Positions 2 through 17,617 of a stretch of 64,000 nucleotides of DNA are shown in pieces; position 1 is the first letter of the stretch, and the number at the start of each line of letters is the position of its first letter. The notes below the pieces were generated by a model. That model was not told the DNA's origin, searched no databases, and saw only the letters and a program-made list of their open reading frames with translations. The stretch comes from Armatimonadota bacterium (GTDB lineage Bacteria > Armatimonadota > HRBIN16). A program made the position numbers and the translations under genes. The stretch covers positions 3,744,001-3,808,000 of the forward strand of contig OY781964.1 of NCBI GenBank assembly GCA_963677485.1. The letters run 5' to 3'.

Positions 2-1282
2 CCGAAGCCGCCATCACCGGCAGATGCTATACGAAAACGGGGTCTGCTGGTAAGAGGGCCGATCCACGACTGGCACTTCTTCATGGTTGATGCCAAGCTT
101 TTCGATACTCACCCCGAATACTTTCCCATGGTCGATGGGAAGCGTACGGTGAATGGCCGCACGGCTTGTTTCTCGAACCCGAAGGCTGTGCAGATATTCA
201 TGGACAACTGGCGTGAGTATGTGCGAACCAACCGTGGTGCCTGGGATGTGATCACCTATTTCCCCGAGGATGTGCCCGATGAGCATTATTGCGGCTGCCC
301 CGAATGCATCAAGGAGCCCAACGCCAACTGGTATGCCATGCTGGTATGCAAGGCCGGGAAGATCGTGGAGGAAGAGGCACCGGGCACCAGGATGGAGTTC
401 TGCGCCTACCACTCGCTGCGGACGCCGCCGACGCGTAAGGTGGAATACCCCTCAAGCGGGCGTAACTTGATCGTGAACATGAGCCTGGGGTACGACCGCG
501 ACCTGTATGAGCCTCTGAACAGCGATAATAAGCTCAACCGGCTCGTAGATGGCATGTTGGACAAGCAGCTAGCCTATCTGGCTTCATGTGGATTCAAGGG
601 CACCGTGCTCATGCAGGACTACTACAACCTGTGCGAACTGCCTGGGATGGGGCCTAGAACCCATTCGTTCCTGTGGCCGGTCGATGTGATCAAGAAGGAC
701 ATGCAATACTACAAGAAGCGCGGGGTCACCGCCGTTGCCGACTGGGTGCTCTACAACAAGATGTGCTTCCCGAACCCATACATGATGTGGGCTTGGCTCA
801 AGGTATGGTCGGATGGCAGGGTTGATTTGGCGAAACTGGAGGCCAGGTTCTACCCGGCATATTACGGAGCTGCAGGGAGCAAGGTTCGGTCGTATATCCA
901 CCGCCTGACCGGGCTGATGCACGAGCTGGTCTCAGTTGATTACGAACGCAATCTAGTCCAACTCGAAAAGCTGGTCAAGGGCCTGGATGGTATCCGCACA
1001 TCAATGCTTTCTGAGCGCGAACGCCACCATATCGAGGTGCTGAAGGTGCATGGCCTTTACTGTGTTTTGCTGAAGAAGGCGTATCATGCCATCGTGACCG
1101 GTGGTCAGGCCCAAAGCGAGGCTTACCGGAAAGAGTTCGCGTTATTTTTCACGGAGACCCATGGCACGCTGTTGAAGGATGAGATCGACCCCAATATGTT
1201 CGGCACCGACTATTGGTGGTTTTGCGTGAACGCCTACCAGGGGTTCGACAAGACCATGGCCACCGACCAGAGGCTGCATTGA
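2..1282 (+). CDS. DUF4838-type glycoside-hydrolase-like protein, 5' end outside the window
   Basis: The frame of ORF 83..1282 is open back to position 2 (PKPPSPADAIRKRGLLVRGPIHDWHFF...). Motifs HPEYFPMVDGKR, CFSNP, FPED..YCGCPEC and AY..L..PP are typical of DUF4838 proteins. Confidence 0.7.
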   Translation, partial: PKPPSPADAIRKRGLLVRGPIHDWHFFMVDAKLFDTHPEYFPMVDGKRTVNGRTACFSNPKAVQIFMDNWREYVRTNRGAWDVITYFPEDVPDEHYCGCPECIKEPNANWYAMLVCKAGKIVEEEAPGTRMEFCAYHSLRTPPTRKVEYPSSGRNLIVNMSLGYDRDLYEPLNSDNKLNRLVDGMLDKQLAYLASCGFKGTVLMQDYYNLCELPGMGPRTHSFLWPVDVIKKDMQYYKKRGVTAVADWVLYNKMCFPNPYMMWAWLKVWSDGRVDLAKLEARFYPAYYGAAGSKVRSYIHRLTGLMHELVSVDYERNLVQLEKLVKGLDGIRTSMLSERERHHIEVLKVHGLYCVLLKKAYHAIVTGGQAQSEAYRKEFALFFTETHGTLLKDEIDPNMFGTDYWWFCVNAYQGFDKTMATDQRLH

Positions 1283-1498: not shown

Positions 1499-2818
1499 CT
1501 ATGTCAGCAAAAGGCAGGGATTCTCTAGTATCTCCTTCAGCCTGGCGAAGAACTCGGCGGCGGGAACGCCGTCCATGATCCGGTGGTCGAATGACAGGCA
1601 AAGGTTCATCATGGCGCGCTGCTTAATCTCCCCGCCGCAAATCACCTGCTTCTCTGCGATCCGACAAACGCCCAGGATGGCGGCCTGACCAGGGGTGATG
1701 ATGGGGTCGAATTGGTCGATACCATATGCACCCAGGTTGGAGATAGTGAAAGTACCCCCGGTGAAGTCATCTGGGGTCGATTTTCCCGCGCGGGCACGTG
1801 CCACGATCGCTTTCAACTGAGTGGAGATGTCGGGCAAACTCGTGGAGGTCACACTCTTGATCACAGGCACGACAAGCGCACCCTCTACCGCGGTGGCGAC
1901 TCCGATTTTGATCTGCTCGTGGATAATGATCTCCGTATCGGTCAGCGAGGAGTTTACTATGGGCCTGTCTTGGATGGCCCTACCAACAGCCTTGACGATG
2001 ATGTCTGTGTACGAGATTCGCACCCCGCCGTGGGCCTCTATGTCTTTAAGTATCCGGTTGCGGAGCGCCACGCACTCCGTCATATCTACCTCAATCACGA
2101 GGGTCACATGCGGTATACATTGGGCACTCTTCATCACATTGTCGCCGACCGCTTTGCGTCTGCCGGTGTATGGGATACTTGAACCTAGTCTTACACTACC
2201 TGGGGCTGTCTGAGCAGGGGAAACGGCCTGGTGGATGTCCGCACTGGTCACCTTGCCGCCGATACCCCTGCCGGACACCGCATGGATATCTATCCCCATC
2301 TCGGCAGCCATCTTACTGGCGAGTGGTGTGACTTTCGGTGCGGACTTGAGGTAGTCCTCCACATCCCGTTGGATGATGCGCCCGTTGGGGCCGGTGCCGC
2401 GTGATGACAACTTCATGATGTCGAGGCCATGCTCTTTGGCCACGCGTCGGGCGGCTGGTGACGCGAATAGCCTGTCAGCATCTGGCTGATCGATGACGAT
2501 GTTTGACACTTGGACATCAGATGTGTCAGGAGCCGCTTGTTCTGGAGCAGGGGTGGTGATCTCAGGCTCTATAGATTCATCAGCCGTCCCGATGATGCAG
2601 ATGGGGTCTCCCACAGGAATCACGTCATCAGCTTGTGCAGTGATCTTGCGCAGGATGCCGGTCTCTGTGGCTTCTACCTCAAGGTTCGTCTTGTCGGTCA
2701 TCACCTCAAGCAGCAACTCGCCAGCCTTAACATGATCGCCCTCGTTCTTGAACCATTGGACAATGGTGCCTTCTTCCATCGTCTGACCTAACGCGGGCAT
2801 CAATATCGTCATCGCCAT
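1499..2818 (-). CDS. Dihydrolipoamide acyltransferase (E2) of a 2-oxoacid/acetoin dehydrogenase complex
   Basis: Lipoyl domain (EVMTDKTN), two peripheral-subunit-binding repeats (ASPAARR..GTGPNGRI; VTPLASK..GIGGKV), catalytic motifs GGTFTISNLG and DHRIMDG. Confidence 0.93.
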   Translation of the reverse strand: MAMTILMPALGQTMEEGTIVQWFKNEGDHVKAGELLLEVMTDKTNLEVEATETGILRKITAQADDVIPVGDPICIIGTADESIEPEITTPAPEQAAPDTSDVQVSNIVIDQPDADRLFASPAARRVAKEHGLDIMKLSSRGTGPNGRIIQRDVEDYLKSAPKVTPLASKMAAEMGIDIHAVSGRGIGGKVTSADIHQAVSPAQTAPGSVRLGSSIPYTGRRKAVGDNVMKSAQCIPHVTLVIEVDMTECVALRNRILKDIEAHGGVRISYTDIIVKAVGRAIQDRPIVNSSLTDTEIIIHEQIKIGVATAVEGALVVPVIKSVTSTSLPDISTQLKAIVARARAGKSTPDDFTGGTFTISNLGAYGIDQFDPIITPGQAAILGVCRIAEKQVICGGEIKQRAMMNLCLSFDHRIMDGVPAAEFFARLKEILENPCLLLT

Positions 2819-2842: not shown

Positions 2843-3676
2843 CTATCGGGGAGTTGCATCGGGAAGGCCGCCGTCCACCGGAATGGTGGCGCCTGTGGTG
2901 GGCGTCTGGTGCGACACCAGGAACAACACCGCATTCGCCACGTGTTCTGCGGTGACTTGCGCTTTCAACAGGTTGCGGCTCTGGTAATACTCCTCCAGCC
3001 CCTTCTCGTCCAGCCCACGTGCCTTCATTCTGCCCGGCCCTACCTCTTGCCATAGACCTGACTTGCGGGCACCATCGGAAAACACCGCATCGGGTGCGAC
3101 CATGTTCACACGCACGCCGATGGGGGCCAGTTCCAGGCTGGCGATGCGCGCCAACTGGTGCGCCGCGGCCTTGGTCGCGCTGTAGGCACCAAATGTGGCT
3201 CCCGGAGCAAACACGTTCTTGGTAGAAACAAGCACGATGTCGCCGCCATCGCCTTGCTCTTCAAACACGCGCGCCATCTCGCTCAAGACCAACAACGTGC
3301 CCTCGACATTGATCTTTTCCAACTTTTGGAACGCCGTCAGTGCCATATCTTTCAGTGATGACACATGTGCCACTCCGGCATTTATGACGGCGATCTCGAT
3401 GCTTTTCCATTGTGACTTGATGACCACCACTGCTTCAGCAACCGAAGCCGGGTCGGTCACGTCCATCGGCACGCCGATGACCCGGTCTCCAAATCGGGCA
3501 GACAACTCCGCCACCAAGCCATCCAGCCGCTCGCCTGGCAAGTCGGTGACGGCCACTCGGCAGTTCGCCTCAAGCAAGCCGCGGCTGATGCCTGCGCCTA
3601 TCGCGCCTGCGGCTCCGGTCACAAACGCCACGCGCCCATCTAGGTCGTAACGGCATACTGCTTTTTTGTAACTCAT
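2843..3676 (-). CDS. Short-chain dehydrogenase resembling the SDR domain of bifunctional rhamnulose-1-P aldolase/SDR (RhaEW type)
   Basis: TGAAGAIG Rossmann motif, NAG, YSATK catalytic motif. STKN..APG, VNMVAPDAVF, SGLW and YYQSRNLLK are characteristic of the RhaEW C-terminal domain. Confidence 0.85.
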   Translation of the reverse strand: MSYKKAVCRYDLDGRVAFVTGAAGAIGAGISRGLLEANCRVAVTDLPGERLDGLVAELSARFGDRVIGVPMDVTDPASVAEAVVVIKSQWKSIEIAVINAGVAHVSSLKDMALTAFQKLEKINVEGTLLVLSEMARVFEEQGDGGDIVLVSTKNVFAPGATFGAYSATKAAAHQLARIASLELAPIGVRVNMVAPDAVFSDGARKSGLWQEVGPGRMKARGLDEKGLEEYYQSRNLLKAQVTAEHVANAVLFLVSHQTPTTGATIPVDGGLPDATPR

Positions 3677-4389
3677 TTGGCACTCCTGATGATATTTAAC
3701 ATCGATATGGCGTTATCGTGGGGTGTCTTACCATCGTATACAGCACTTCCGGTGACCACCACATCCGCGCCCAGTTTCGCAATCTCTACGATGTTCTCTT
3801 TAGTGATTCCGCCATCCAGGCAGATCAGAATATCTCTATCGGCAATAAGTGTGCGCAACTGTACCATTCGTTCGGACGTGGCGGCGATGAACTTCTGACC
3901 GCCCCAGCCCGGGTTGATGCCCAGCAGTGTGACCATCTCGATCTCATCGAGCAGCGGCTCGATGGCCTGCATGGGTGTTCCTGGGTTGATGGCTAACCCG
4001 CGGACAATCCCTCTGTCTGGGTCGTTCGCATTCGCCATCTTACCCAGAGCTTGGAACACGCGATGGATATGGGTTGGTTCGCTTTCCCAATGCACAGTGA
4101 GAATATCCGCACCGGCAGCCACAAAATCTGCAAGTTTGTTCAGCGGCTCATTGATCATCAGGTGGATGTCTTTGAGCAAATTCGTCTTGATTCCCTTGAT
4201 GAACGGCGGGCCTATTGTCATGGACGGGCAGAAACACCCGTCCATGACATCGAAATGGAGGATGCCGACCCCCGTGTTCTCCAGAGCCGTCAGCTCATCC
4301 CCAAGCTTCATCATACTGGCGGTCAGTATGCCGACACTAATTGAAGGTGTCAAGGCTCTGAGTGTTTGCATCACGGGAGTAAGCGGCAT
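3673..4389 (-). CDS. rpe: Ribulose-phosphate 3-epimerase family protein
   Basis: HFDVMDG, DIHLMI, TVHWE, INPGT, NPGWGGQKF, LDGGI, VTGSAV. Start placed at ATG 4389, 1 nt from the lsrF stop, instead of the ORF-track start at 4455. Confidence 0.88.
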   Translation of the reverse strand: MPLTPVMQTLRALTPSISVGILTASMMKLGDELTALENTGVGILHFDVMDGCFCPSMTIGPPFIKGIKTNLLKDIHLMINEPLNKLADFVAAGADILTVHWESEPTHIHRVFQALGKMANANDPDRGIVRGLAINPGTPMQAIEPLLDEIEMVTLLGINPGWGGQKFIAATSERMVQLRTLIADRDILICLDGGITKENIVEIAKLGADVVVTGSAVYDGKTPHDNAISMLNIIRSAK

Positions 4390-4390
4390 G

Positions 4391-5272
4391 TCAGGCCTTC
4401 CTGTTTTTCTCGGTGAGATAGAATTCGTAGGCGTGTTCAGCGCATAGCCCTTCATGAACCACCTTGCGCACGGCCTGGATCATAGGAATGGGGCACTCGG
4501 CTTGGAAGATGTTGCGGCCCATGTCCACGCCGCAAGCTCCCTGTTGGATCGCGTTGTAGGCCATCTTCAAGGCGTCAAGCTCGGGCAGCTTCTTGCCGCC
4601 GGCTATCACGATTGGCACGGGGCATGAGGCCGCCACGGTGTCGAAACCCTCTTCCACGTAGTAGGTCTTCACGTAGGTTGCTCCCAGTTCGGCGCACATG
4701 CGGGTGGCGAGCCTCATATAGCGTGCGTCGCGCGCCATATCCTTGCCAACAGCGGTGACGCCCAGGGTGGCGATGCCGTAGCGGTTGCCCATGTCGACCA
4801 GCCTGGTCATGTTATGAATGGACTGCGACTCGTATTCGCCACCCACAAACACCTGCACGGCCATCGCCGCGACGTTCAAACGGATCGCTTCGTCGATGTC
4901 GATGGCGATCTGCTCATTGGATAGCTCCTTCAGGATGCTCGGTCCGCCGCTGGCTCGCAGCACGATGCCGCGGGTAAACGTGGGAGGGATCACCGAGCGC
5001 AGCACCCCGCGGGTGAGCATTAGGGTGTCAGCGTAGGGGAGTAGCGGCAGGATGTTGACGTCAATTCTTTCAAGGCCGGTGGTCGGTCCCTGGAAATATC
5101 CGTGGTCGATGGCCAGCATGACTGTCTTGTTTGTGTTGGGATCGAAAATCTGGGATAGCCTGTTTTTCAGGCCCCAGTCCAGGTTATTGCATCCCTTTAG
5201 CGGGTAGACCGTATTGGTCTGTGGGATATCCAGATAGAAGTTTTTCTCTTCGCGTGCATCTGCTTCCGGCAT
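4391..5272 (-). CDS. lsrF: LsrF-type 3-hydroxy-5-phosphooxypentane-2,4-dione thiolase (class I aldolase fold)
   Basis: [68 protein letters not shown] and [10 protein letters not shown] are hallmark LsrF segments. SD AAGGAG upstream. Confidence 0.92.
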
Positions 5273-5377: not shown

Positions 5378-5397
5378 TGAAATGACATTACATTTCA
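5378..5397. promoter_or_regulatory. Candidate RpiR-family operator TGAAATG-N6-CATTTCA
   Basis: Perfect 7-bp IR just downstream of the rightward -10. TGAAA..TTTCA resembles RpiR/MurR-family boxes. Confidence 0.55.
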
Positions 5398-5417
5398 TCA
5401 ACGACAAAGAGGGTTAT

Positions 5418-6305
5418 ATGACACCGGAAATAGATGCATCTAAAACTGAATTATCGAAGGGCACGGTCTTTTCCCGCATCCAAAGTATGTCCGCCAGCGG
5501 CAAAAAAAGTGTGACGGCCATCTCCGCATATGTGCTTCAGCATTCTGAGGCTGTGCTTCAGATGACCCTAACTGAACTGGCCACCCGTGTGGGCACCAGC
5601 GTGGCGAGTATCAGCCGTTATTGCAGCATGCTGGGTTATGAGAACTATCGGGCGTTTCAGATCGACCTGACTGCCTCCCTGGCTAATAACGCCACTTCCG
5701 TATCTGACCTGTTTGGATCGGAAGATGATACATCGACCATCATCAAGCGGGTTTTTGAGATGAATCGGCAGGGACTGGCCGACACAGAATCGCTGATGAA
5801 GCATGATGATATGGTAGAGGTGGCGAAACTCATCACCGCATCTCGAAGACTGTGTCTGCTGGGAATAGGCAGTTCAGGGCTGGTAGCCAGATCAAGTGCG
5901 CTAAAGCTGGCCAGTCTGGGTATTACAGCACTGGCGATTACCGACCCCTATGAGGGGATACTCACCCTCTCATCATCAACATGCGAGGACGTGTTGATAG
6001 CCATCAGCCACTCTGGACGCAGCGGACTCATCATTGAGCTGCTTGAGATTGCCAAAGAGAAAGGTGCCCGCACGGTGGGGATCACCAACTACTCAGACAC
6101 CACACTCGCCAACCAGTGCGAGTTCACTTTCCTGACCTCATTCCGTGAACGGCGCATCAATGCCGCCGTCTCCTCATCCAGCATTGAGCAGTTGTGCATT
6201 TTAGATGCGCTCTATTTTCTGATCGCACACCTGCAAGGGCCGATATCTGAATCAATGGTAATGGAAATCGAGACGAACGCAGAACGAATCATCCGAGCAA
6301 GGTAA
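5418..6305 (+). CDS. RpiR/MurR family transcriptional regulator (HTH + SIS domain)
   Basis: TLTELATRVGTSVASISRYCSMLGYENY helix-turn-helix, then GIGSSG, ISHSG, ITN and CILDALY SIS motifs. SD AGAGGG before ATG 5418. Confidence 0.92.
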   Translation: MTPEIDASKTELSKGTVFSRIQSMSASGKKSVTAISAYVLQHSEAVLQMTLTELATRVGTSVASISRYCSMLGYENYRAFQIDLTASLANNATSVSDLFGSEDDTSTIIKRVFEMNRQGLADTESLMKHDDMVEVAKLITASRRLCLLGIGSSGLVARSSALKLASLGITALAITDPYEGILTLSSSTCEDVLIAISHSGRSGLIIELLEIAKEKGARTVGITNYSDTTLANQCEFTFLTSFRERRINAAVSSSSIEQLCILDALYFLIAHLQGPISESMVMEIETNAERIIRAR

Positions 6306-6334: not shown

Positions 6335-7678
6335 ATGTATCAAACCTATTACAACCCTGAAATCTTCTGCCAGACCTTCGATGGTATCGACCGTGACAAA
6401 TATGTGGTCGCCACATATTACATGGATGACTGCTTGCCTGGCGAGGATTTCATCGACCATTTTGCACTCGTTCAGGCGATGGCCCTGGAAGGCTCCACCG
6501 GCACATGGGAGAAGGTCGAAGAAGACACGCCCGAAATGCGCGAGGTCTATTCCTCCAAGATGGTGGGTTATTTTGAGCTGCCGTCGGATGACCCCAGCCG
6601 AAAACGGGCGATCGTTCAGCTTGCCTTCCCGCTGGCCGCATGGGGCAACAACATCACGATGATGCTTCTGGCCATCGCGGGCAACTGTTTTGCTTACAGC
6701 CCTTCGATTCGACTGCTGGACGTCTATCTCGGTGAGAACATTCTTAAGGGGTTCCAAGGACCGAAATTCGGCGTGCAGGGCATCCGCGACATCCTCGGTG
6801 TGGAAAAACGGCCTCTGTCGCTTCATATCATCAAGCCCAAAATGGGGATGACACCCGAGCAGGTGGCTCATCAGTGTTATCAGACCGCTATCGGCGGTGT
6901 CGACATGATGAAAGACGACGAGATGACCTCGGATGTCTCCAACAGCAATTACCTTGATCGTCTTAAAGCGGTGAATATCGCGCTGGACAAAGCGGAGAGC
7001 GAGACGGGCAAGCGCCCTATCTATCTGCTATCCATCACCCACGAGCCAGAAAAGATGAAAGAGCGTGCCTACAAGGCGATTGATGCTGGTGCTAACGGGC
7101 TGCTGGTCACCTATTCGGCTGGCCTGGGCGCATTGCGCGAACTGACCGAAGACCCCAAGATCAATGTGCCTGTGATGCTGCACGCCTCGCATATGATCGC
7201 TTCGTTGAAGAGCGTGTCATGGCCGGTAGGTGCCAAACTCTGCCGCCTGTGCGGTGCTGACCTTATGCTCACACCCACCATGTGGAGCTCCATCCCCATG
7301 GTGTCGCTTGAAGAGGGCGTACGCACCAGTCACATGCAGTTGGCACCTCTCGCTCACATCAAGCCGACCTTCGCGATGCCTTGCGCCGGGGTCTACCCAG
7401 GGCTGGCTCCCATCCTGGTCGGCGAATACGGCACGGATATCGTGATCCCCGCCGGTGGAGGGATGCTCGGGCACCCGGACGGCTACACCGCCGGTGCGAA
7501 GTCCTGGCAGCAGGCGATCGCTGCCACGATGAGCGATGAACCATTCATCGAGTATGCCAAACGGCCAGAGTGCGGTGAGCTCAGGAGAGCCATCAGCAAG
7601 TGGGGATACCTTGAGCGACCGAAGAGCCCATGGCTGCGTGTGGCACCAAAGTTCCACCCGAAGCATATGGAGCTGTAG
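6335..7678 (+). CDS. RuBisCO-like protein (Form IV RLP)
   Basis: EGSTGTW, AGNCF, GPKFG..GIR, IIKPKMG, GGVDMMKDDE and AGGGMLGHPDG. Lacks the R295, H327 and K334 equivalents of carboxylating RuBisCO. SD AAGGAG. Confidence 0.95.
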   Translation: MYQTYYNPEIFCQTFDGIDRDKYVVATYYMDDCLPGEDFIDHFALVQAMALEGSTGTWEKVEEDTPEMREVYSSKMVGYFELPSDDPSRKRAIVQLAFPLAAWGNNITMMLLAIAGNCFAYSPSIRLLDVYLGENILKGFQGPKFGVQGIRDILGVEKRPLSLHIIKPKMGMTPEQVAHQCYQTAIGGVDMMKDDEMTSDVSNSNYLDRLKAVNIALDKAESETGKRPIYLLSITHEPEKMKERAYKAIDAGANGLLVTYSAGLGALRELTEDPKINVPVMLHASHMIASLKSVSWPVGAKLCRLCGADLMLTPTMWSSIPMVSLEEGVRTSHMQLAPLAHIKPTFAMPCAGVYPGLAPILVGEYGTDIVIPAGGGMLGHPDGYTAGAKSWQQAIAATMSDEPFIEYAKRPECGELRRAISKWGYLERPKSPWLRVAPKFHPKHMEL

Positions 7679-7809: not shown

Positions 7810-9297
7810 ATGACGACGGCAAAGCGGTTTTTGGCATATGACATTGGGGCATCTAACGGACGGGCCGTGGTGGGGGAATTTGATGGCGAGAAACTAACCT
7901 GTCGCGACATCTACCATTTCCCTAACGACCCCGTGCATGTGCCAGGTGGATTTCACTGGGATATTTTTCGGCTGTTTCACGAGGTCAAGCAGGCATTATG
8001 GGCTTACCGTTCGGAATGCGGTAGTGAGCTGGATGGCATCGGGATTGACACCTGGGGAGTGGACTTCGGCCTATTCGACAGAAACGGCAGACTGCTGGGA
8101 AATCCGCACCACTACCGTGACAGCCGCTGCGACGGCGCCGCCGAGGAACTCAGGCAGATCATCAACGGGTATGAGCTGTTTCAGCAGACCGGTGTGGCGA
8201 TTCAACAGGTAGCCACTATCACTCAGATGTATGCGTATGCGAAGAACAAGTCGCCCCTGCTGGAGGTGGCCAAGTCGTTCTTGATGATACCGAGTATCTT
8301 CAACTACTACCTGACCGGCGAGAAGGTGGATGAGCATTCCAATATATCCAATACCGCCTTGCTGGCCATCAAGGACAACGCCCCTGCCAAGGGGGTGCTG
8401 AGTGCCATCGGCATCTCGCGCAATATCCTGCCTCGGTTTGTGATGCCTGGAGACACCATAGGATTGCTTCGAGGACGGGTGGCGGATGAGCTAGGTATGG
8501 GTTCGGTGCCGGTTTTTGCTCCAGCGACGCACGACTCCGCGAGTGCGGTGCTATCGATACCGGCTGATCCCACCACCAACTGGGCGTTTTTGAGCTGCGG
8601 AACCTGGTCGGTGCTGGGTGTAGAGACCGATAAGCCGATTCTCGGTCCCCGCGCCTATGAGCTGAACCTCACGAGTGCCGCCACCGCTGACGGCAAGTAT
8701 ATGTCGCGCTTCAATATCAACGGGCTTTGGATATTGCAGGAGATTCGCAGGGCGTGGGAGGGGCAGGGCAGCCGGATGAACTGGAAGGGCATGGTGCGTG
8801 TGGTGGCATCCACTGAGCCGTTCACCGCGTTCATCGATGTGGACGACCCTGCCTTCGCCGATCCGGTAGATATGCCCACGGCGATCATTGAGTATTTGAC
8901 AGCTACAGAGCAGCGGATTCCGGGCGATAAGGGCACGATGGTGCGTATTGTGCTGGAGAGTCTGGCAATGAAATATCGCTTCCTGCTGCGCCAGATCAAA
9001 GAGCTGTCTGGGAAGCCGATTGACGTGCTGCACATCGTGGGTGGTGGTGTGAAGAACACAGTGCTGTGCAGCCTGACAGCCAGCGCGGTCGGGATTCCGG
9101 TTGTGGCCGGCCCTATGGAGGCAACCTGCAGCGGAAACCTGCTTACCCAGATGATGGGTGCAGGCATTGTAAAGACGATAGACGAGGGGCGCATGTTGCT
9201 GCGTTCCTCCTACGACCTGACTTTGTACAAGCCACACCGTGCTAAAGCATGGGACGAGGCCTATCAACGATACCTGACAGTGACAGGGAGGAAATAG
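7810..9297 (+). CDS. rhaB: Rhamnulokinase-like FGGY carbohydrate kinase
   Basis: LAYDIGASNGR, GIDTWGVDF, YRDSR, ATHDSASAV, LSCGTWSVLG, NINGLWILQE, ESLA, IVGGG, GPMEAT..GN. Confidence 0.88.
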   Translation: MTTAKRFLAYDIGASNGRAVVGEFDGEKLTCRDIYHFPNDPVHVPGGFHWDIFRLFHEVKQALWAYRSECGSELDGIGIDTWGVDFGLFDRNGRLLGNPHHYRDSRCDGAAEELRQIINGYELFQQTGVAIQQVATITQMYAYAKNKSPLLEVAKSFLMIPSIFNYYLTGEKVDEHSNISNTALLAIKDNAPAKGVLSAIGISRNILPRFVMPGDTIGLLRGRVADELGMGSVPVFAPATHDSASAVLSIPADPTTNWAFLSCGTWSVLGVETDKPILGPRAYELNLTSAATADGKYMSRFNINGLWILQEIRRAWEGQGSRMNWKGMVRVVASTEPFTAFIDVDDPAFADPVDMPTAIIEYLTATEQRIPGDKGTMVRIVLESLAMKYRFLLRQIKELSGKPIDVLHIVGGGVKNTVLCSLTASAVGIPVVAGPMEATCSGNLLTQMMGAGIVKTIDEGRMLLRSSYDLTLYKPHRAKAWDEAYQRYLTVTGRK

Positions 9298-9299
9298 AA

Positions 9300-10280
9300 A
9301 TGCTTGGTAAGAACAAACTGGGTGCGTGCCTTCCAACGTTCGGCTCATGTGCCGACAGATACTGCCTCTCGGGGTATGGTGGGGGTGGCACCACGATGGA
9401 GGAGATGCTGGACCTAGCCACTCAGGTCAAGCAGCTTGATGGCCTTGAGATCGTGGGTAACTGGCATGTGAATGACCAAAACATCGATCTGGTGAAAAGG
9501 CTGTTCGCAGAGCGTAACCTTGAAATCAGCATGGTGGTGCCGGATCTGTGGACTCAAGCGAAGTGGGGCAAGGGTAGCCTCGCCTCCCAGGATCCACTGA
9601 TTCGCAAGGCGGCGGTGGCGGAAGTGAAGAAGTCGATGGACTGGGCTGCGGGGGTTGGCTGCTCGTATGTGGATGTTTGGCCCGGGCAGGACGGTTATGA
9701 CTATCCGCTTCAAGCGGACTTCACTGAGGCCTGGAAATGGATGAAAGACGGGATTGAGGATTGTGCGGCCCACCGCACCGATGTGAAGGTGCTGGTGGAG
9801 TATAAGCTCAAGGAGCCTCGCACGCATTGCTATATCAACAGTGCCGCGAAGACGATCCTGCTGATTGACGGACTGCCGAACACCGGTGTGCTGCTGGATA
9901 TCGGCCACTCGATGGCTGCGGGCGAGAACATCGCGGAAGCGGCGGCATTGCTAGATGACTACGGATGCCTTGATTATCTTCATCTGAATGATAACTACCG
10001 CGTGTGGGACGATGACATGATGTTCGCCGCGGTGAATATACCGGAGACTCTAGAGTTCATATTCTGGCTGAAGAAACTCAACTACACCGGATGGCTGACG
10101 CTGGACATCTTCCCATACCGCGAAGACAAAATACCGGTGGTGGAGAACTGCTTTGCCTGGCTGACGACGTTGATGGCGGCGGTCGAAAAGAAGGGCGTTG
10201 CCGAAATTCAGGCTGTGCTGCGATCGGCCGACGCCAACCGCAGCGTCGCGCTGGTCCGCGAATTGCTGACAGGGGGATGA
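9300..10280 (+). CDS. Xylose-isomerase-like TIM-barrel sugar isomerase
   Basis: WPGQDGYDYP, EYKLKEPR, LDIGH, HLNDNYRVWDDD and LDIFP metal-binding motifs. SD GGGAGG before ATG 9300; the ORF-track start at 9249 overlaps the kinase. Confidence 0.87.
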   Translation: MLGKNKLGACLPTFGSCADRYCLSGYGGGGTTMEEMLDLATQVKQLDGLEIVGNWHVNDQNIDLVKRLFAERNLEISMVVPDLWTQAKWGKGSLASQDPLIRKAAVAEVKKSMDWAAGVGCSYVDVWPGQDGYDYPLQADFTEAWKWMKDGIEDCAAHRTDVKVLVEYKLKEPRTHCYINSAAKTILLIDGLPNTGVLLDIGHSMAAGENIAEAAALLDDYGCLDYLHLNDNYRVWDDDMMFAAVNIPETLEFIFWLKKLNYTGWLTLDIFPYREDKIPVVENCFAWLTTLMAAVEKKGVAEIQAVLRSADANRSVALVRELLTGG

Positions 10281-10284
10281 TACG

Positions 10285-11286
10285 TTGACTCATGAAACAC
10301 GCGACCTGAGAGGCCGTGAACCCGAACAAGAGATATCGGCTGATAGGCTGCTGGCCATGTACAAAACCATGGTTAGGATCCGCCGGTTCGAAGACACCAT
10401 ACACCTGAGATTCCTGAAGGGCACACTGCCTGGAACAGTTCATCTATATCAGGGGCAGGAGGCCGTGGCGGTCGGTGTGTGCGCACATCTGAACGAACAA
10501 GATGCCGTTGCCAGCACACACAGGCCGCATGGCCACGCCATAGCTAAGGGTGTGAGTCTGCGGTCGCTGATGGCGGAGCTTTACGGCAAGGAAACGGGTT
10601 GCTGTAAGGGAAAAGGCGGGTCGATGCACGTGGGCGATGCTTCTGTGGGTATGCTGCCGGCTATCGCCATCGTGGGTGGCGGACTTACCATCGCCACAGG
10701 CTGTGGACTGGCCTTCAAGATGCAGAAGAATCACAACGTGGCAATCGCCTTTCTAGGTGATGGTGCGTCCAACGAGGGTGACTTCCATGAGGCACTGAAC
10801 ATGGCCGCGATATGGAATCTGCCGGTGGTGTTCGTGTGTGAAAACAACCTGTATGGTGCTTCCACTAGCCTAAAGCTTGTGTGCAAGCTGGAGGATATCG
10901 CCGACCGTGCAGCCAGTTACGACATGCCATCGTCGATCTGCGACGGTAATGACCTCTTCTCAGTGTATGGGGCGTTGGCTGAGGCTGTGGAACAGGCACG
11001 CTCTGGCGGCGGCCCAAGCCTGGTGGAGTGCAAGACCTACCGTATCGGCGGACACTCCCGTTCAGACGGCAACGCTTACCGTGACAAAGAAGAAGAGAAG
11101 CTCTGGTTTGAGCACGACCCCATTCGAAACTTGCAGACAAAGCTGATCAGCATGGGCGTGATGACAGAACCCGACATCGCACGCATCGATGATGAGATCG
11201 AAAAAGAGATCGAAGATGCGACGGAGTTTGCGGTGAACAGCCCGCTTCCTTTACCGGACGAGTGCTTTACGGACCTCTGGGCATAG
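10285..11286 (+). CDS. ThDP-dependent dehydrogenase E1 alpha subunit (acetoin/pyruvate dehydrogenase type)
   Basis: HLYQGQEA, STHRPHGH, GKGGSMH, GDGA..N..ENN ThDP motif, TYR..GHS. Confidence 0.93.
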   Translation: MTHETRDLRGREPEQEISADRLLAMYKTMVRIRRFEDTIHLRFLKGTLPGTVHLYQGQEAVAVGVCAHLNEQDAVASTHRPHGHAIAKGVSLRSLMAELYGKETGCCKGKGGSMHVGDASVGMLPAIAIVGGGLTIATGCGLAFKMQKNHNVAIAFLGDGASNEGDFHEALNMAAIWNLPVVFVCENNLYGASTSLKLVCKLEDIADRAASYDMPSSICDGNDLFSVYGALAEAVEQARSGGGPSLVECKTYRIGGHSRSDGNAYRDKEEEKLWFEHDPIRNLQTKLISMGVMTEPDIARIDDEIEKEIEDATEFAVNSPLPLPDECFTDLWA

Positions 11287-11298: not shown

Positions 11299-12318
11299 AT
11301 GAAAAAACTGTCATACGCCGAAGCGATACGGGAAGGCATCAAAGAGGAGATGCAGCGCGACCAGCGCGTGTTCTGCATCGGTGAAGATATTGGGGTGGAG
11401 AATGGCTTTGGTGGAGCCTTTACGGTCACCCTTGGATTGTCCGACATCTTTGGGCATGAGCGTATCCTCGATACCCCCATTTCGGAAGCAGGTCTGGCGG
11501 GGGCCGCCATCGGTGCTGCTATGATGGGCATGCGCCCCATCGCCGATGTGCAGTATTGCGATTTCCTGTTCTGCTGTATGGACCAGATGATCAATGAGGC
11601 TCCGAAGATGCGTTACATGTCCGGTGGCGGTTTTTCGGTGCCGATGGTGATGCGCGCTCCTGTGGGGGTGACCGCCCGCGGTGCCCAGCACGCCCAGAGC
11701 GTGGAGAGCTATTTCATGCACTGCCCAGGTTGGAAGATCGCCTGCCCTTCGAATGCATACGATGCGAAAGGCATACTCAAAACAGCCGTGCGGGATGACA
11801 ACCCGGTGTTGATATTTGAACACAAAAAGTTGTATGGTGCCAAAGGCATCCGCAAGGTGGAAGGCGCACTGGATGCCTCCAGTGATATCCCAGAGGAAGA
11901 CTACACCATCCCCGAAGGCAAGGCGCGGATCGTCCGAGCGGGTAAGCATGTGACCGTGTTGGCCAACCTCAGGATGGTCTACGAGGCCGGTTTCGCCGCC
12001 AGTGAACTAGCGGAAGAGGGCATTGAAGTGGAGCTCATCGACCCACGCTGGCTGGTGCCATTTGACTATGAGACGCTGTATGCCTCTGTGAAGAAGACAG
12101 GCCGACTGGTGGTAGTGCATGAAGACACCATCACGGGCGGATGGGGTGCTGAGATCGCCGCGAAGGCGATGTTCGATGTGTTCGACTATCTTGATGCGCC
12201 GGTCTGGCGTGTCGCCGCGCCAGATACCCCTGCACCCTTCTCGCCTCCATTGGAGGATGTGTATGTGCCGAGTAAGGAGCGCATCAAGCAGGCGATACGG
12301 AAGATCTGTTATCGGTGA
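11299..12318 (+). CDS. ThDP-dependent dehydrogenase E1 beta subunit
   Basis: IGEDIG, DTPISE, GMRP, AQHAQS, DAKG, EHKKLY, SVKKTGR, LDAPV.RV. Confidence 0.93.
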   Translation: MKKLSYAEAIREGIKEEMQRDQRVFCIGEDIGVENGFGGAFTVTLGLSDIFGHERILDTPISEAGLAGAAIGAAMMGMRPIADVQYCDFLFCCMDQMINEAPKMRYMSGGGFSVPMVMRAPVGVTARGAQHAQSVESYFMHCPGWKIACPSNAYDAKGILKTAVRDDNPVLIFEHKKLYGAKGIRKVEGALDASSDIPEEDYTIPEGKARIVRAGKHVTVLANLRMVYEAGFAASELAEEGIEVELIDPRWLVPFDYETLYASVKKTGRLVVVHEDTITGGWGAEIAAKAMFDVFDYLDAPVWRVAAPDTPAPFSPPLEDVYVPSKERIKQAIRKICYR

Positions 12319-12878
12319 GAACTGGTTACATCTTCGACTTTGACGGTGTGCTGGTCGATAGCATTGAAGTGCATTGGTCCAGCTTCATGCCAGCCTGTTC
12401 AGAAGTGGGTATACATGTAGACAGGGACAGACTTGTCAGATACAACGGCATCCCGGTAATCCAGCAGATTGAGCTGTTTGCAGGCCACTCCAACGTTCAG
12501 GTGAATGCAAATGCAGTATTCGATCGATATTCAGAAAACTATGCCCTGCAGTCAATAGAAGATGTGGTCATCATCGAGCCCATGTTAGGGATAATGCGTG
12601 CATTATCCCTTGCCGGTTGCTCGGTGGCCATTGCATCTAGCGGCTCACGGGAGCACATTCAGGCGATTGTAGACAAGTTTGCCATTCCATGCGAGATCAT
12701 TGTCTCGAATAACGATGTGAGCAACGGCAAGCCAGACCCCGAGATATTCCTTACCGCCGCAGCAAGGTTGGGCATCTCTCCCGAGAACTGCGTGGTGTTT
12801 GAAGACTCAGATATAGGCATTCAGGCCGCCGTGCGCGCAGGAATGGCTACCCTGCATTTCCGACAGCACGACGACTGA
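12315..12878 (+). CDS. HAD-family phosphatase (beta-phosphoglucomutase/YqaB-like)
   Basis: FDFDGVLVDS, ASS, KPDPEIF, FEDS..GI.AA..AGM. GTG start overlaps the E1b stop. Confidence 0.88.
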   Translation: MRTGYIFDFDGVLVDSIEVHWSSFMPACSEVGIHVDRDRLVRYNGIPVIQQIELFAGHSNVQVNANAVFDRYSENYALQSIEDVVIIEPMLGIMRALSLAGCSVAIASSGSREHIQAIVDKFAIPCEIIVSNNDVSNGKPDPEIFLTAAARLGISPENCVVFEDSDIGIQAAVRAGMATLHFRQHDD

Positions 12879-13557: not shown

Positions 13558-13661
13558 TGGGAGCATTAATTACAGCAAACCCACAGGGCGTCTTGCTGAA
13601 CTGATATGCTCAGCAAGGTTTCAGAGAGTATAGCGACTATATACCTTCGACGATTAATCCA

Positions 13662-13702: not shown

Positions 13703-16700
13703 CTACTTCACAGCCAGTATCTGCACCGGCCCTAACAGCCCCGAAGAATACAGCGGCGTATCAGCCCCCAACTGGAAGTTGGATTTGGTCAACCGTTGAG
13801 CCACAGGCAGGGCGGCATCACCGATCACGCGGTTCGCCCACAGGTTCGCCACCTCGATCTCCAGCGTATTCACACCAGGTTTGATGGCTGCTCCCAGATC
13901 GGCCTGCCAGGGCTCGCACCAGGTCACGCCCAAATCCTTGCCGTTCAAGCGCACACGGGCGATGTCCTTCACCACACCCAGGCTGAGCCGCAGCTTCGAA
14001 ATCTGCGCTGGCGTCAGACCCTGGGGTAGGTTGAAACTGGTGCTGTAGGTTGCGATTCCGGAGTAGAATCTCAAGCCGGGTTCGGCACGTTTCGTCCAGT
14101 CGGTGAGCTGTTTGAACACCAGCCTGCCTTTCGACAGGTCGCCGGAAGTCCCCAGAGCAGGTGATACCCAGGCTGGATCGAACTGCACGGCCCAAGGGCC
14201 TTTAACTTCTTGCATCGGCTTATACTCATGGAAGTTAGGTTTGGCTTTCACAGTGGCTGGTGTGGCTGCCTTCTGGCGGAAGATGATGAACAACCCCTGG
14301 TATGCCTCGAAGCGCATGGGGATGACTGTCTGCTGTGCTTTGATTGAGTAACTCGGAAGCGCACTGACCTTGCCTGTGAGCGGGTCGAACAGCTCCGGTA
14401 CTTTGCCAGTGATGCGTAATGCTATCTGCATTTTGAGCAGCTTACTGGACGGGTTCGCTACGAAATAGATGTCAGTGTCCTTCGTGCGCCGATGAATCCA
14501 GTCGAGGCTGATGGTTGCGGACGGATCGAATGAGCCCCATGGGCTGCAGCCTAACGGTCCGACGATGCTGGCGGATGTCCAAGTTTTGGCATCCTGGCTG
14601 GACTGCCATGTGTCCGCATCGGTGCAGAGTTCCGTTGTCTTGCCGTTTGATAGTGTGACCACGAATTTACCGATCAACCCAGCGGGGCTGGGCTCGTTGG
14701 TGATATTGACGGCCTTCACCAGGACTGTGTTCCGTCCGGCCTTCAGCAGCTTCGAAATATCGGCGTCAGATGCTTTCTGCCAGTCTACGCTCTTCAAGCA
14801 CTCTTTGCCGTTGACCGTCAGGGTGAACTCGTTGTCTGCGGACATGCTGACCAATGCTTTCTGAACCTTGGCTTTTGCTGGCAGATCGATGGTCGATCTG
14901 AAGTAACGGGTTCCGGGTGCTGGGTATCCTGCGGCACTGCCATGCCATATCCAAGAGGCATTCGCCAGACCCGCTCGTTTGGCGGTAGAGGCATTGCCGA
15001 TATCGGTAGCCACCATATCGGGCAGGGAGTTGTCCTTCTGCATCAGCTTGTCAATCGAGAGCCCCCACACTACGCGGCCTATGCCCACGCTATGGATGCC
15101 CTTCGGTGTGCGTTTGGTACCCCATAAGGTGTTGACGAGTGCTTTCAGCTTAACCTCGGCGGACGCCCGGTTTGCCAGGCCTGGGGTGCGTGTGGGCGGT
15201 TTCCCAACCAGTGTGCCACCTGCTGCCACCAGATTCGCAATCTTCTGCAGCACTTCAGTGCTCATGGTCGAACTGTATGGGTCGGTGAGCACGAGATACC
15301 GGTAGCTCAGCCTGTCCGGCAGTGTCCACCGGCCGTTCTTGACCGAGAGGCGGGTGAGCAGCACTTCAGCATTTATGCCGTCGTAGTCGCATCCCAACGG
15401 CAACGCAGGCTTCAAACTCGCCTTGCTGGGCACATATCGGGAAGAGCCCTCGCCCACAAAGTAGGCGGCGTCGGCCACGAACTTCCCTTGCTGCAGAAGA
15501 CACTGGCAGCGTCCGATGTAGTTCAGCATCCCCTCAGCCATCGGCCACCAGGTGTAGTGACGGCTGAATATGCCATAGTCTTCCAAACCGGGCTTGTATT
15601 CAAAGGGCTGATGAACATACTTGTGTATCACCGCGGAGTTCAGACCATTGGCGAAGCAATAGTTGAGTGTTTTGCGGTAACGGTCGGGGGCGGTGACCTG
15701 CCCCAGCCAGGGGTGATAAGTCAGCGTCTCGGCTTGCACGATCTGCCGGCCGTAGATGCGTGCGCCGGAGGCGGCGGTACGCAGTGCATCGGCGAAGGGG
15801 TTTGACATCGCACTGGAGACGTTCTCTAAAGAGTTGTTGTGCGAGACCTCCGCCATTGGCAGGTCGGCGCGGCCAAAAACCTTCAGACCATCCTGGTGCG
15901 GTGAGGGATAACTACCATAACCCGATTCTGGGTTCATCATGGTGTTGGTCAGGTGCGCTCTGTGCTGGAGCTGTCCGTAGTAATCCGCCACCAAGTCCGC
16001 GATGGTGGCGCGGTAGTCGGTAAGGAACCTTTCGGTGGTCTCGCTGTCATCCACGATGCGGCGCGCCATCGCAGGGAGCATCGAAAGCAAGTCATACCCT
16101 CGGCGCTTGCGGAACTGCTCGCGGAACTCTGGCGTCCAGGTGGGCTGCTGTCCTTGGACATCGGCACCGATCTCCCAGCTATCGGTGTGGAATAGTTTCA
16201 TCACGCCCGGTGCGCTCTTTTCGGTAGCCTTGAGCATGCCCATCGCCGCGTTGTCGAACATCAGGTCAGCGCCTTTGGTGCTCAGCACATCCACCTCGTA
16301 GCCACCGCCAGCGGACATACGCGCGGGCTGTCCGATGGTGGTCCATCCGAAGCGCATGATTGTCCAGCGTCCTGAGGGTGCCTTCCAGTCCAAGTGACCG
16401 TCGGGTCGCAGATATTTGGTGAGGTCGATCACCTGGCTGCTCTTGAGGTCGTATTGTTTGTGGAATGGGTTGTTATCATCCATCGCAGCTTCCACCAGAA
16501 TGCCGCGGTTGCCAGACTTGTAGTTCCACCATTTGATGCCCTGGCGCACCGTGGGCTGGTCACCCTGACGCAGCATCTGGAACTCCGCCAGACTGACATC
16601 CGGTGAATAGGCCGATGTGATCACCAGCCGGAAGTAACGTCCAGTGGTTTCTGCGATGGAAATCTGCTTCGCCTCGCCCTGCTTCATGTTGATTTGCTTG

Positions 16701-17506: not shown

Positions 17507-17617
17507 GTTTGTGTATCCTCTCAATGCTGATGCGTCGGTGCTACCTACCACGATACAGCCATGGCGTATGCTTGTGCAATGGTTGATTTGGCCTTTTGTT
17601 TGCACATTCTGACCAAA

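Follow-up and report, generated by a model that had tools for sequence, protein, structure and literature searches.

What does an enzyme do that appears to have kept the catalytic core of RuBisCO but to have rebuilt the part of the active site that would hold a second phosphate? The question is raised by a gene at positions 6335..7678 (+) of a 64,000-nucleotide stretch of DNA from an Armatimonadota bacterium (contig OY781964.1, positions 3,744,001 to 3,808,000), which is referred to here as the window. The gene encodes a form IV RuBisCO-like protein (RLP) of 447 amino acids; its open reading frame (ORF) runs uninterrupted for 447 codons and a stop, and AAGGAGA precedes its ATG. The protein is very probably a non-carboxylating RuBisCO relative from a new form IV clade, and its conserved sugar-isomerase, kinase and pyruvate dehydrogenase (PDH)-like partners point to an undescribed form of sugar breakdown. 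The clade, its residue signature and its conserved pathway context are what is new here, the superfamily and its enolisation chemistry being already known.

The RLP scores 137.6 bits (E 6.9e-40, cut-off 30.1) against the Pfam model RuBisCO_large (PF00016) and 35.8 bits (cut-off 20.7) against RuBisCO_large_N (PF02788), and because both scores exceed their cut-offs the match to the RuBisCO family lies far beyond chance. It has the N-terminal alpha+beta domain and the C-terminal TIM barrel of the superfamily, and its AlphaFold2 model adopts the RuBisCO large-subunit (RuBisCO-L) fold with a pLDDT of 94.1 and a predicted TM-score (pTM) of 0.92. When the model was compared with the PDB by Foldseek, RuBisCO and RLP chains alone were returned, at 23-31% identity and TM 0.79-0.91 (0.8-0.9 to 2oem, 1tel and 2d69), so that its identity with solved RLP and RuBisCO structures is about 30% in every case. 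Its place within the superfamily was not so clear from profile scores, as it falls below every NCBIfam equivalog cut-off tried (form III, MtnW and OiaX). It reaches 220.2 bits on the form III model TIGR03326 (cut-off 497.45), and on the large-subunit models NF003252 and NF010002 it reaches 209.4 bits (cut-off 438) and 103.5 bits (cut-off 489). The best NCBIfam score, 269.3 bits on the MtnW model NF007095, is below the cut-off of 409, as are the 220 bits on the other MtnW model, TIGR03332 (cut-off 513.6), and the 136 bits on the OiaX model NF042437 (cut-off 700). The best PDB sequence match is an MtnW as well (2zvi, E 8.4e-58).

The active site is more informative. Residue equivalences were taken from a 99-sequence MAFFT alignment of the RLP, five members of its clade and 93 full-length representatives, the last drawn from an exhaustive HMMER search that returned 1702 proteins at E<=0.001 and 195 at E<=1e-30. 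Rows of the alignment were labelled by NCBIfam cut-offs, which gave form III rows (P0195, P0205, P0214 and P0254) and MtnW rows, among which P0153 and P0163 pass both models and P0159, P0175, P0187, P0196 and P0218 pass one. Positions are given in spinach RbcL numbering, carried over by way of the form III motifs.

The ten motifs that the initial annotation of this DNA had quoted each occur exactly once in the protein, all on the forward strand. EGSTGTW (residues 52-58, positions 6488..6508) holds E52 and T57, the equivalents of E60 and T65, which are N-domain residues that complete the active site of the partner subunit in RuBisCO. AGNCF (115-119, 6677..6691) keeps N123 as asparagine (N117), where MtnW has lysine; IIKPKMG (165-171, 6827..6847) keeps both K175 and K177 (K167 and K169), where MtnW is without K177; and KDDE (193-196, 6911..6922) contains the carbamylatable lysine K201 and the Mg2+ ligands D203 and E204 as K193, D195 and E196, aligned with the KDDE of form III as in the superfamily at large. 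H294 is found as H283 at the end of MLH (281-283), G381 as G352, and G403 and G404, whose backbone amides belong to the C1-phosphate site, as G374 and G375 in AGGG (373-376, 7451..7462). The substitutions fall in three places. In HASH (283-286; HASHM, 7181..7195) R295 is replaced by alanine (A284) and H298 by methionine (M287), which by alignment and model would remove the C5-phosphate site. At the end of beta-6 and in loop 6 (ADLMLTPTMWSSIPMVS, 7256..7306), which take in ADLML (308-312) and PTMWSS (314-319), H327 becomes leucine (L312) and K334 serine (S319), and in MPCAG (348-352, 7376..7390) S379 becomes cysteine (C350) and G380 alanine (A351). The retained residues named in the initial annotation (E60, T65, N123, K175, K177, K201-D203-E204, H294 and G403/G404) and its substitutions (R295 to Ala, H327 to Leu, K334 absent, S379 to Cys) were all recovered by the alignment, and H298 to Met and G380 to Ala are two substitutions beyond that list.

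Read against RuBisCO, this pattern suggests that the RLP keeps a Mg2+ site with a carbamylatable lysine (K193, D195, E196), the set of residues for enolisation, by which the C3 proton is removed and a 2,3-enediolate formed (K167, K169, H283, N117 and, from the partner, E52/T57), and the C1-phosphate site (G352, G374, G375). Small or hydrophobic side chains (A284, M287, L312, S319, C350) stand in place of the second-phosphate pocket and of the loop-6 lysine on which CO2 addition depends.

The register at H283 deserves a comment, as a gapless HMMER pairwise alignment to the form III structure 2cwx places H283 opposite H298 and a P-V pair opposite H294-R295, a slide of four residues. The register H283=H294 is preferred because three results agree on it: the multiple alignment, the alignment of the protein with MtnW in pairs, and the strand ends of the AlphaFold model. 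In the model, strand 280-283 (beta-5) ends at H283 and strand 310-314 (beta-6) holds L312. The H283=H298 register was set aside on these three lines of evidence and not by superposition. A structural model and a phylogeny had been proposed as checks in the initial annotation; the first of these gave the RuBisCO-L fold and strand ends consistent with H283=H294.

The signature is shared by the relatives of the protein. A word-indexed search found 700 proteins at E<=1e-10 among 7999 candidates scored, and residues were counted over the best 120 cluster representatives, which are 67-100% identical to the RLP. Invariant in all 120 are E52, W58, N117, K167, K169, K193, D195, E196, H283 and S285, together with L312, W317, S318, S319, I320, G352 and G374-376; T57 is threonine in 112 and serine in 8. 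Position 284 (R295) varies (A 62, G 44, C 12, P 1, N 1), and H286 is conserved in 113 relatives, M287 in 117, and C350 and A351 in 119 each. Not one of the 120 carries R, H, H or K at 295, 298, 327 or 334, the residues expected of a bona fide RuBisCO, and the RLP itself has A, M, L and S there. In a 14-sequence alignment the loop-6 stretch LTPTxWSSIPMVSxEEG is invariant and free of lysine. With these four residues replaced throughout, and with a score of 220 bits against the 497 of the form III cut-off, the earlier claim that this is not a ribulose-1,5-bisphosphate carboxylase is well supported.

Phylogenetics, the second check, was run as a maximum-likelihood tree (quick IQ-TREE search, LG+C20, SH-aLRT support only). 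The RLP clade has 100% support and, with P0122, P0123, P0125, P0128 and P0127, forms an 11-row clade (96%). This clade and P0136, at an unresolved fork, stand beside a 35-row clade (97%) that holds MtnW, and all seven rows labelled MtnW fall in a 13-row subclade (99%) within the latter. The clade is therefore separate from MtnW, and the suggestion of an uncharacterised form IV clade holds up, given scores below the MtnW and OiaX cut-offs, full support outside MtnW and about 30% identity to solved structures. It is called new with respect to the rows of our own tree. A literature search whose coverage excluded most subscription journals returned nothing on the clade, which published trees may already include without a name, and no paper tying an RLP to a rhamnulokinase- or fuculokinase-like kinase, to LsrF or to E1/E2. 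A 2020 genome paper gives the functions of RLPs in candidate phyla radiation (CPR) bacteria, Spirochaetes, Planctomycetes and Moorella thermoacetica as unknown (PMC7325909), and these RLPs may or may not belong to the present clade; in another tree RLPs are collapsed into the outgroup (PMC13454268).

The clade is widespread. A scan of species-representative genomes gave 255 pattern matches, 210 of which encode a relative of the RLP, and the best 80 of these 210 loci all come from metagenome-assembled genomes (MAGs) or metagenome assemblies. Among the 80 are loci from Omnitrophota, Armatimonadota, Acidobacteriota, Planctomycetota (including Brocadiaceae and Phycisphaerae) and Spirochaetota, as well as from Verrucomicrobiota/Kiritimatiellae, Latescibacterota, Hydrogenedentota, Sumerlaeota, Atribacteria, Aerophobetes, Ratteibacteria, Bacteroidales, Nitrospiraceae, Chloroflexota and others. 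Identity within the clade across phyla is 60-80%, and one protein, P0002, matches the RLP at 100% identity and carries the NCBI label Armatimonadota. The relatives carry generic database names or, for many at JGI, the name 2,3-diketo-5-methylthiopentyl-1-phosphate (DK-MTP-1-P) enolase, a label that the present evidence does not support. Elsewhere in the superfamily, in other RLP and RuBisCO clades, fused proteins were seen: a TIR domain with an RLP (P0201, 583 aa), an IF-2B-family isomerase with a RuBisCO-like protein (P0216, 742 aa) and an RLP with a nucleotidyl-transferase (P0231, 667 aa). These fusions of other clades gave no clue to the function of this one.

For function we turned to the neighbouring genes. 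The 80 loci were searched by tblastn with the neighbours in the window; many of the loci end at contig edges, and counts are also given for a full-flank subset, the 29 loci in which 8 kb or more is present on each side of the RLP gene. Directly upstream of the RLP gene lies an RpiR/MurR-family regulator with an HTH_6 domain and a sugar-phosphate-sensing SIS domain by Pfam and NCBIfam (5382..6305, +), found in 49/80 loci and 21/29 with full flanks. Downstream is an FGGY kinase (7810..9297, +; Pfam FGGY_N/C; 39/80 and 18/29), nearest by NCBIfam and PDB comparison to L-fuculose and L-rhamnulose 1-kinases. It scores 373 bits on the NCBIfam rhamnulokinase model, below the cut-off of 528, and 66 bits on the autoinducer-2 (AI-2) kinase model, and in the PDB only FucK (4c23, 274.8 bits) and RhaB (2cgj, 248.6 bits) reach E 1e-10. 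Kinases of L-fuculose and L-rhamnulose phosphorylate C1 of 6-deoxy-2-ketohexoses. The third gene encodes a xylose-isomerase-like (XI-like) TIM barrel, a putative aldose-ketose isomerase (9249..10280, +; Pfam AP_endonuc_2; 47/80 and 26/29), whose best PDB match is an uncharacterised structural-genomics 'xylose isomerase' (3ktc, 193 bits), followed by Thermus xylose isomerase at 70 bits. Its ORF has 49 nt in common with that of the kinase, and translation may in fact begin at the ATG at 9297.

There follow the two subunits of a thiamine-diphosphate E1 of the PDH/acetoin-dehydrogenase type. E1 alpha (10285..11286, +; Pfam E1_dh; 54/80 and 23/29) reaches 360.7 bits on TIGR03182, just under the cut-off of 393.85, and its best PDB match is human PDH E1 alpha at 207 bits. 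E1 beta (11299..12318, +; Pfam and NCBIfam; 52/80 and 23/29) passes the PDH E1 beta subfamily model with 331 bits against 321. The lipoyl E2 acyltransferase (1499..2818, -; Biotin_lipoyl, E3_binding and 2-oxoacid_dh domains; 38/80 and 18/29) is the last gene of a divergent operon in the window; across the loci it usually comes immediately after the RLP gene. The usual order is RpiR-RLP-(kinase)-(XI)-E2-E1a-E1b, the partner genes of the full-flank loci lie nearly always on the RLP strand, and of the 47 loci in which 6 kb or more follows the RLP gene, 41 carry E1 alpha or E1 beta. Scans of neighbouring ORFs in the window and in the other loci turned up no E3 gene. This near-constant pairing with a PDH-like E1 alpha/beta-E2 is the strongest clue to function and had been missing from the initial annotation.

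The remaining neighbours in the window are accessory. On the reverse strand, a short-chain dehydrogenase/reductase (SDR; 2843..3676; 5/80 and 4/29) resembles the C-terminal dehydrogenase half of rhamnulose-1-phosphate aldolase/SDR fusions, with 400.6 bits on NF006194 over profile positions 436-703. Next to it are a ribulose-phosphate 3-epimerase (RPE) family gene by Pfam and NCBIfam (3673..4455; 4/80 and 3/29) and a class I aldolase/thiolase of the LsrF type (4391..5272; 5/80 and 3/29), which scores 492.8 bits on the 3-hydroxy-5-phosphonooxypentane-2,4-dione thiolase equivalog NF006081 (cut-off 297). The RPE-like ORF shares 65 nt with the end of the LsrF-like one, and its true start is probably further downstream because the Pfam match begins only at residue 39. 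After E1 beta come a HAD-IA phosphatase of the beta-phosphoglucomutase-like kind by Pfam and NCBIfam (12315..12878, +; 4/80 and 2/29) and, as a weak link, a glycoside hydrolase family 106 (GH106) alpha-L-rhamnosidase of 1300 aa (13703..17605, -; PF17132, 476 bits), which tblastn found in 1/80 loci and 1/29 with full flanks. There is no class II aldolase among the 44 window ORFs scanned, and no pathway-related gene among the 31 ORFs from 17.6 to 64 kb.

Further families appeared when ORFs of the loci were clustered de novo. A URO-D-family protein (PF01208) is encoded in 23/80 loci, within or beside the RLP cluster (e.g. L019:12365-13453, L046:13877-15721, and in L055, L057, L059 and L063), and five loci also encode a URO-D protein fused to a B12-binding domain, these fusions adjoining a ribose-type ABC transporter. 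The sole PDB match of the URO-D protein, a weak one, is a methylcobalamin:CoM methyltransferase. The genes resemble a corrinoid methyltransferase system, and the sugar may be O- or S-methylated. Rarer neighbours are an apiosidase-like GH140 (four loci), GH2, GH4 and GH28, a second GH106 in L020, and a ribose-type ABC transporter. A class II aldolase is present in L009 and L030 and, as a full aldolase-SDR fusion, in L002. A 4HBT thioesterase (cluster c61) occurs in two loci, LutABC-like lactate-utilisation genes at L021:5304-8282, a CoA-transferase with A and B subunits at L016:17401-19226, and bacterial microcompartment (BMC) shell proteins with an aldehyde dehydrogenase at L017:16704-20009 and, by cluster membership, in L026. 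The Lut, CoA-transferase and BMC neighbours hint at lactate, lactyl-CoA or an aldehyde as product in some lineages. A class III aminotransferase (c19) accompanies the RLP and kinase in L009, L031, L036 and L071, and an Amidohydro_2-family protein (c13/c16) is found in L004, L009, L036, L066 and L072; this variant context, with either or both, carries an extra SDR and may or may not include E1/E2.

How might these pieces fit together? Our overall reading, a tentative one, is that the RLP is a C3-enolising ketose-1-phosphate isomerase whose product is cleaved by E1/E2. From the residue pattern, a ketose 1-phosphate whose tail is uncharged is rather likely as substrate; that the RLP is an isomerase feeding E1/E2 is possible. 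The initial annotation had proposed a 1-monophosphate with an uncharged distal end and favoured a 5-deoxy sugar. The first part is plausible and gains independent support because the kinase is nearest to 1-kinases and the XI-like gene is conserved. The second part fared less well, as a 6-deoxyhexose would fit the kinase and the GH106, lactate-utilisation and CoA-transferase genes at least as well, and URO-D hints at a methylated or methylthio sugar.

In the proposed pathway the XI-like enzyme would convert an aldose with an uncharged tail (5-deoxy, 6-deoxy or methylthio) into the 2-ketose, and the fuculokinase/rhamnulokinase-like kinase would then phosphorylate its C1. The RLP carbamate would take the C3 proton in the manner of RuBisCO to give a Mg-bound 2,3-enediolate. 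A carbamate is the probable base because the Lys123 of MtnW, reportedly the catalytic base of the Geobacillus enzyme, is absent and K177, N123 and E60 are kept. Addition of CO2 to the enediolate is unlikely because K334 is absent, and by analogy migration of the carbonyl on re-protonation may be its simplest productive fate, a 1,2- or 1,3-isomerisation as in the RLP of Rhodospirillum rubrum. The product would be an acyloin, so that an E1/E2 of the PDH/acetoin-dehydrogenase type could cleave it: the thiamine/lipoyl E1 alpha/beta-E2 would oxidatively split the hydroxy-ketone phosphate, acetoin-dehydrogenase style, into an acyl-CoA and a triose phosphate. With a C5 sugar, 5-deoxyribulose 1-phosphate would become 1-deoxyxylulose 5-phosphate (DXP) and then acetyl-CoA and glyceraldehyde 3-phosphate. 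With a C6 sugar, rhamnulose or fuculose 1-phosphate would by a 1,3-shift become a 4-ulose and then lactyl-CoA and glyceraldehyde 3-phosphate.

The two versions draw on different neighbours. The donor to be expected of a PDH-like E1 is of the acetyl type (a methyl ketone), which favours the C5 or DXP version; the RPE-like gene agrees with that version too, as its product could act as a C3 epimerase of 1-deoxy-pentulose 5-phosphate. On the side of the C6 version are the kinase, the rhamnosidases and the RhaEW-like SDR and, in some loci, genes for LutABC, a CoA-transferase and a thioesterase. The 4HBT thioesterase, CoA-transferase and LutABC-like genes hint at an acyl-CoA other than plain acetyl-CoA, or at the formation of lactate. 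A sugar methylated on S or O would agree with the URO-D/B12 genes. The candidate substrates are a 5-deoxy, a 6-deoxy and a methylthio sugar.

A number of points weigh against this reading. Everything past the residue pattern and the synteny is inferred, and the E1/E2 is of an ordinary PDH type by sequence and could merely oxidise pyruvate made downstream. The kinase is absent from 11/29 full-flank loci and E1 from 5/29, and the loci without E1 carry a class II aldolase, extra SDRs or a class III aminotransferase. The scheme leaves the URO-D genes (23/80) and the five URO-D+B12 fusions unexplained. The LsrF equivalog, in the window and four loci and mostly accompanied by the RPE-like and SDR genes, suggests an alternative or additional route. 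The lactyl-CoA version sits awkwardly with the acetyl-type donor expected of a PDH-like E1, and the retention of N123, K177 and E60 could mean carboxylate handling or C-C cleavage.

The alternative that survives best keeps the 2,3-enediolate and changes its fate. The RLP would then be a C3 epimerase, or would eliminate the C4 hydroxyl (an MtnB-like dehydration to a 2,3-diketo-4-deoxy 1-phosphate) or the C1 phosphate (to a 1-deoxy-2,3-diulose), and E1/E2 would cleave the resulting diketone or acyloin. The residue and synteny evidence is identical for the two readings, beta-elimination from the enediol is a known side reaction of RuBisCO, and the HAD phosphatase is found in 4/80 loci. However, loss of the phosphate would discard the very handle that the conserved C1-phosphate site binds, an alpha-diketone would be an unusual substrate for a PDH-type E1 to cleave, and we know of no RLP that is a dehydratase. 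We regard this alternative as unlikely.

It is quite unlikely that the link to E1/E2 is simply one of book-keeping, with the locus encoding a pathway of the fucose or rhamnose type in which lactaldehyde goes by way of lactate to pyruvate, E1/E2 serves as PDH and the RLP has a side job such as epimerising a sugar phosphate or mending a damaged one; the aldolase would be encoded elsewhere or be the LsrF-like class I aldolase. Such a pathway would suit the PDH-like sequences of E1 alpha and beta, the full class II aldolase-SDR fusion of L002, the likeness of the window SDR to a lactaldehyde-dehydrogenase half, the GH106 genes of the window and L020 and the LutABC-like genes of L021. It does not account for the adjacency of RLP, E2, E1a and E1b, the most conserved feature over many phyla, when aldolase/SDR genes are rare (5/80) and E3 is missing from the neighbours scanned. 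Moreover, many of the host lineages are reputed anaerobes, in which reliance on PDH is not expected.

The LsrF-type gene suggests a third possibility, in which the RLP is an LsrG-like tautomerase that interconverts a 1-deoxy-2,3-pentodiulose phosphate resembling phospho-4,5-dihydroxy-2,3-pentanedione (P-DPD) and 3-hydroxy-2,4-pentanedione 5-phosphate, from which LsrF would form dihydroxyacetone phosphate (DHAP) and acetyl-CoA. The FGGY kinase would stand in for LsrK and the RPE-like protein for LsrE, Salmonella lsrE being an Rpe homologue, and the substrate would be related to AI-2. In its favour, the ORF at 4391-5272 lies far above the LsrF equivalog cut-off with the RPE-family gene adjoining it, and tautomerisation through a 2,3-enediol of a methyl-ended C5 phosphate would fit the pocket. 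Yet LsrF is present in only 5/80 loci (3/29 with full flanks), the kinase scores 66 bits as an AI-2 kinase against 373 as a rhamnulokinase, the near-universal E1/E2 and XI-like partners are left without a role, and the literature search for a RuBisCO-like protein with LsrF found nothing, all of which makes this possibility improbable.

More improbable is C-C-cleaving chemistry on a monophosphate, that is carboxylation, oxygenation, decarboxylation or hydrolysis of the enediolate or of a beta-keto acid, as in the RLPs of apiose and hamamelose breakdown, with an acid product passed to a 2-oxoacid-dehydrogenase-like E1/E2. The clade keeps N123, K175, K177, E60 and H294, which are partly lost in MtnW, and an apiosidase-like GH140 is encoded in 4/80 loci. 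RLPs that are decarboxylases, a transcarboxylase/hydrolase and an oxygenase have been described (PMC6302742, PMC10176493). However, all 120 relatives are without the loop-6 lysine, the OiaX model gives 136 bits against 700, the kinase resembles a 6-deoxy-ketohexose 1-kinase and not a sugar-acid kinase, and the cluster has no conserved sugar dehydrogenase or lactonase. Finally, that the RLP is MtnW, the DK-MTP-1-P enolase of methionine salvage, agrees with its best NCBIfam and PDB sequence matches and with the JGI names of many relatives, but is hardly credible and was rejected, as both MtnW scores (269 bits vs 409, 220 vs 513.6), the Asn at 123 in 120/120 with K177 and E60 kept, the tree and a gene context in which Mtn families are not among the window neighbours scanned are all contrary to it.

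Some observations on the surrounding DNA stand apart from these questions. In L001, a metagenome chromosome assembly, the cluster is 99% identical to that of the window and diverges downstream of E1 beta: the window continues with the HAD gene, an ORF of 164 aa and GH106, and its near-twin with a URO-D gene, a family absent from the window, a GFO/IDH/MocA oxidoreductase and DUF4838 proteins. The difference over window positions 12315-17605 is a recent rearrangement at the cluster edge. DUF4838 genes number two in L001 and one in L008, and a DUF4838 protein is cut by the start of the window (2-1282, +); L001 also encodes a protein with a WbsX-like domain, and the DUF4838 and WbsX-like proteins are probably glycan-active enzymes. 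Further along the window, four tandem GH36/melibiase paralogues of about 690 aa (37002-39062, 39064-41163, 41219-43294 and 43300-45363, +) are preceded by a 1062-aa protein with an alpha-amylase domain (33689-36877). A likely PEP-CTERM/exosortase-type locus, unrelated to the RLP, occupies 53485-57325 (-) with exosortase EpsH (54546-55361), a DUF3485 protein and a tetratricopeptide-repeat (TPR) protein.

Why does it matter which reaction the RLP catalyses? Few RLP reactions are known: those of an enolase, a 1,3-isomerase, a decarboxylase, a transcarboxylase/hydrolase and an oxygenase (PMC10176493). Each newly solved RLP has revealed a new pathway and informed views on the origin of CO2 fixation in enolate chemistry. 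The active site of the present clade is unusually near that of RuBisCO, the distal phosphate site and loop 6 alone having been rebuilt, and because the clade is large and conserved, with a RuBisCO-near active site and a fixed E1/E2 partner, the function of the RLP can be tested with a short list of sugar phosphates. It is doubtful that the RLP and the PDH-like E1 alpha/beta-E2 together provide a hitherto undescribed route by which deoxy or methylthio sugars are broken down without an aldolase. If they do, a DXP-like acyloin phosphate would be cleaved directly to an acyl-CoA and glyceraldehyde 3-phosphate, a toxic free aldehyde such as acetaldehyde or lactaldehyde would never be released and a thioester would be conserved. 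Such a route would exist in at least about 200 species, mostly of uncultured phyla, with Omnitrophota, Planctomycetota, Acidobacteriota, Spirochaetota and Armatimonadota among them. The RuBisCO superfamily would gain a new reaction and complexes of the 2-oxoacid-dehydrogenase type their first substrate that is a sugar phosphate, and the labels 'DK-MTP-1-phosphate enolase' and 'pyruvate dehydrogenase' would need correcting in many MAGs.

Among characterised proteins, the nearest by sequence and fold are the MtnW/YkrW enolases of Bacillus subtilis (2zvi) and Geobacillus kaustophilus (2oek/2oem), at TM 0.81-0.91 and about 30% identity. The RLP and MtnW have in common the Mg/carbamate triad, K175, H294 and the glycines of the C1-phosphate site, and both have lost R295, H298, H327 and K334, with Leu at 327, Ser at 334 and Ala at 380. 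Each would have as its ligand a 1-phosphate whose tail is hydrophobic. The seven MtnW rows have Gly at 60, Lys at 123, V/I/G/T at 177 and Ser at 379, in contrast to the Glu, Asn, Lys and Cys of the RLP clade. The setting differs as well. The methionine-salvage families MtnK, MtnA, MtnB, MtnX and MtnD are absent from the 13 window neighbours scanned, the HAD gene near the RLP matches models of the beta-phosphoglucomutase type, and the neighbours are a kinase, an isomerase and E1/E2, unlike the methionine-salvage setting of MtnW.

Form III RuBisCO is nearly as close as MtnW, at 189 bits, TM 0.81-0.88 and about 30% identity for the enzymes of Pyrococcus horikoshii (2cwx/2d69) and Thermococcus kodakarensis (3a12). 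It shares with the RLP E60, T65, N123, K175, K177, K201, D203, E204, H294, G381, G403 and G404, and where it has R295, H298, H327, K334, S379 and G380 the RLP has A, M, L, S, C and A. OiaX and OiaT, a 3-oxo-isoapionate-4-phosphate decarboxylase and transcarboxylase/hydrolase, act in plant-wall sugar catabolism beside a kinase (PMC6302742). The apiosidase-like GH140 genes of 4/80 loci recall such apiose RLPs; unlike at OiaX/OiaT loci, genes for oxidative apiose breakdown are not conserved around the RLP.

For the E1/E2 the parallel is acetoin dehydrogenase, whose E1 alpha/beta and lipoyl E2 cleave acetoin into acetyl-CoA and acetaldehyde. The thiamine chemistry proposed here, also that of DXP synthase, would be the same on a phosphorylated sugar acyloin, and to our knowledge no E1/E2 acts on a sugar phosphate. 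Unlike in acetoin dehydrogenase, the E1 of the window is nearest PDH E1 by sequence, and no E3 was found with the cluster.

The functional model for our proposal is the DeepYkr RLP of Rhodospirillum rubrum and Rhodopseudomonas palustris, described as a 1,3-isomerase that converts 5-methylthioribulose 1-phosphate into 1-methylthioxylulose 5-phosphate (PMC5893883, PMC6302742). In that reaction a ketose 1-phosphate with an uncharged tail is enolised, its carbonyl moved and a DXP analogue formed, which is what we propose for the present clade. No DeepYkr reference sequence was among the rows of the tree, and 3qfw, presumably the structure of the R. rubrum RLP, is absent from the best 60 of 99 PDB sequence matches and from the Foldseek matches listed. 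No cupin, the family of the partner there, the 1-methylthioxylulose-5-phosphate (MTXu-5-P) methylsulfurylase, turned up in the scans of the window neighbours and of 130 locus ORFs. DeepYkr RLP is partnered by a cupin methylsulfurylase, whereas the partner of the RLP described here is a thiamine/lipoyl E1/E2.

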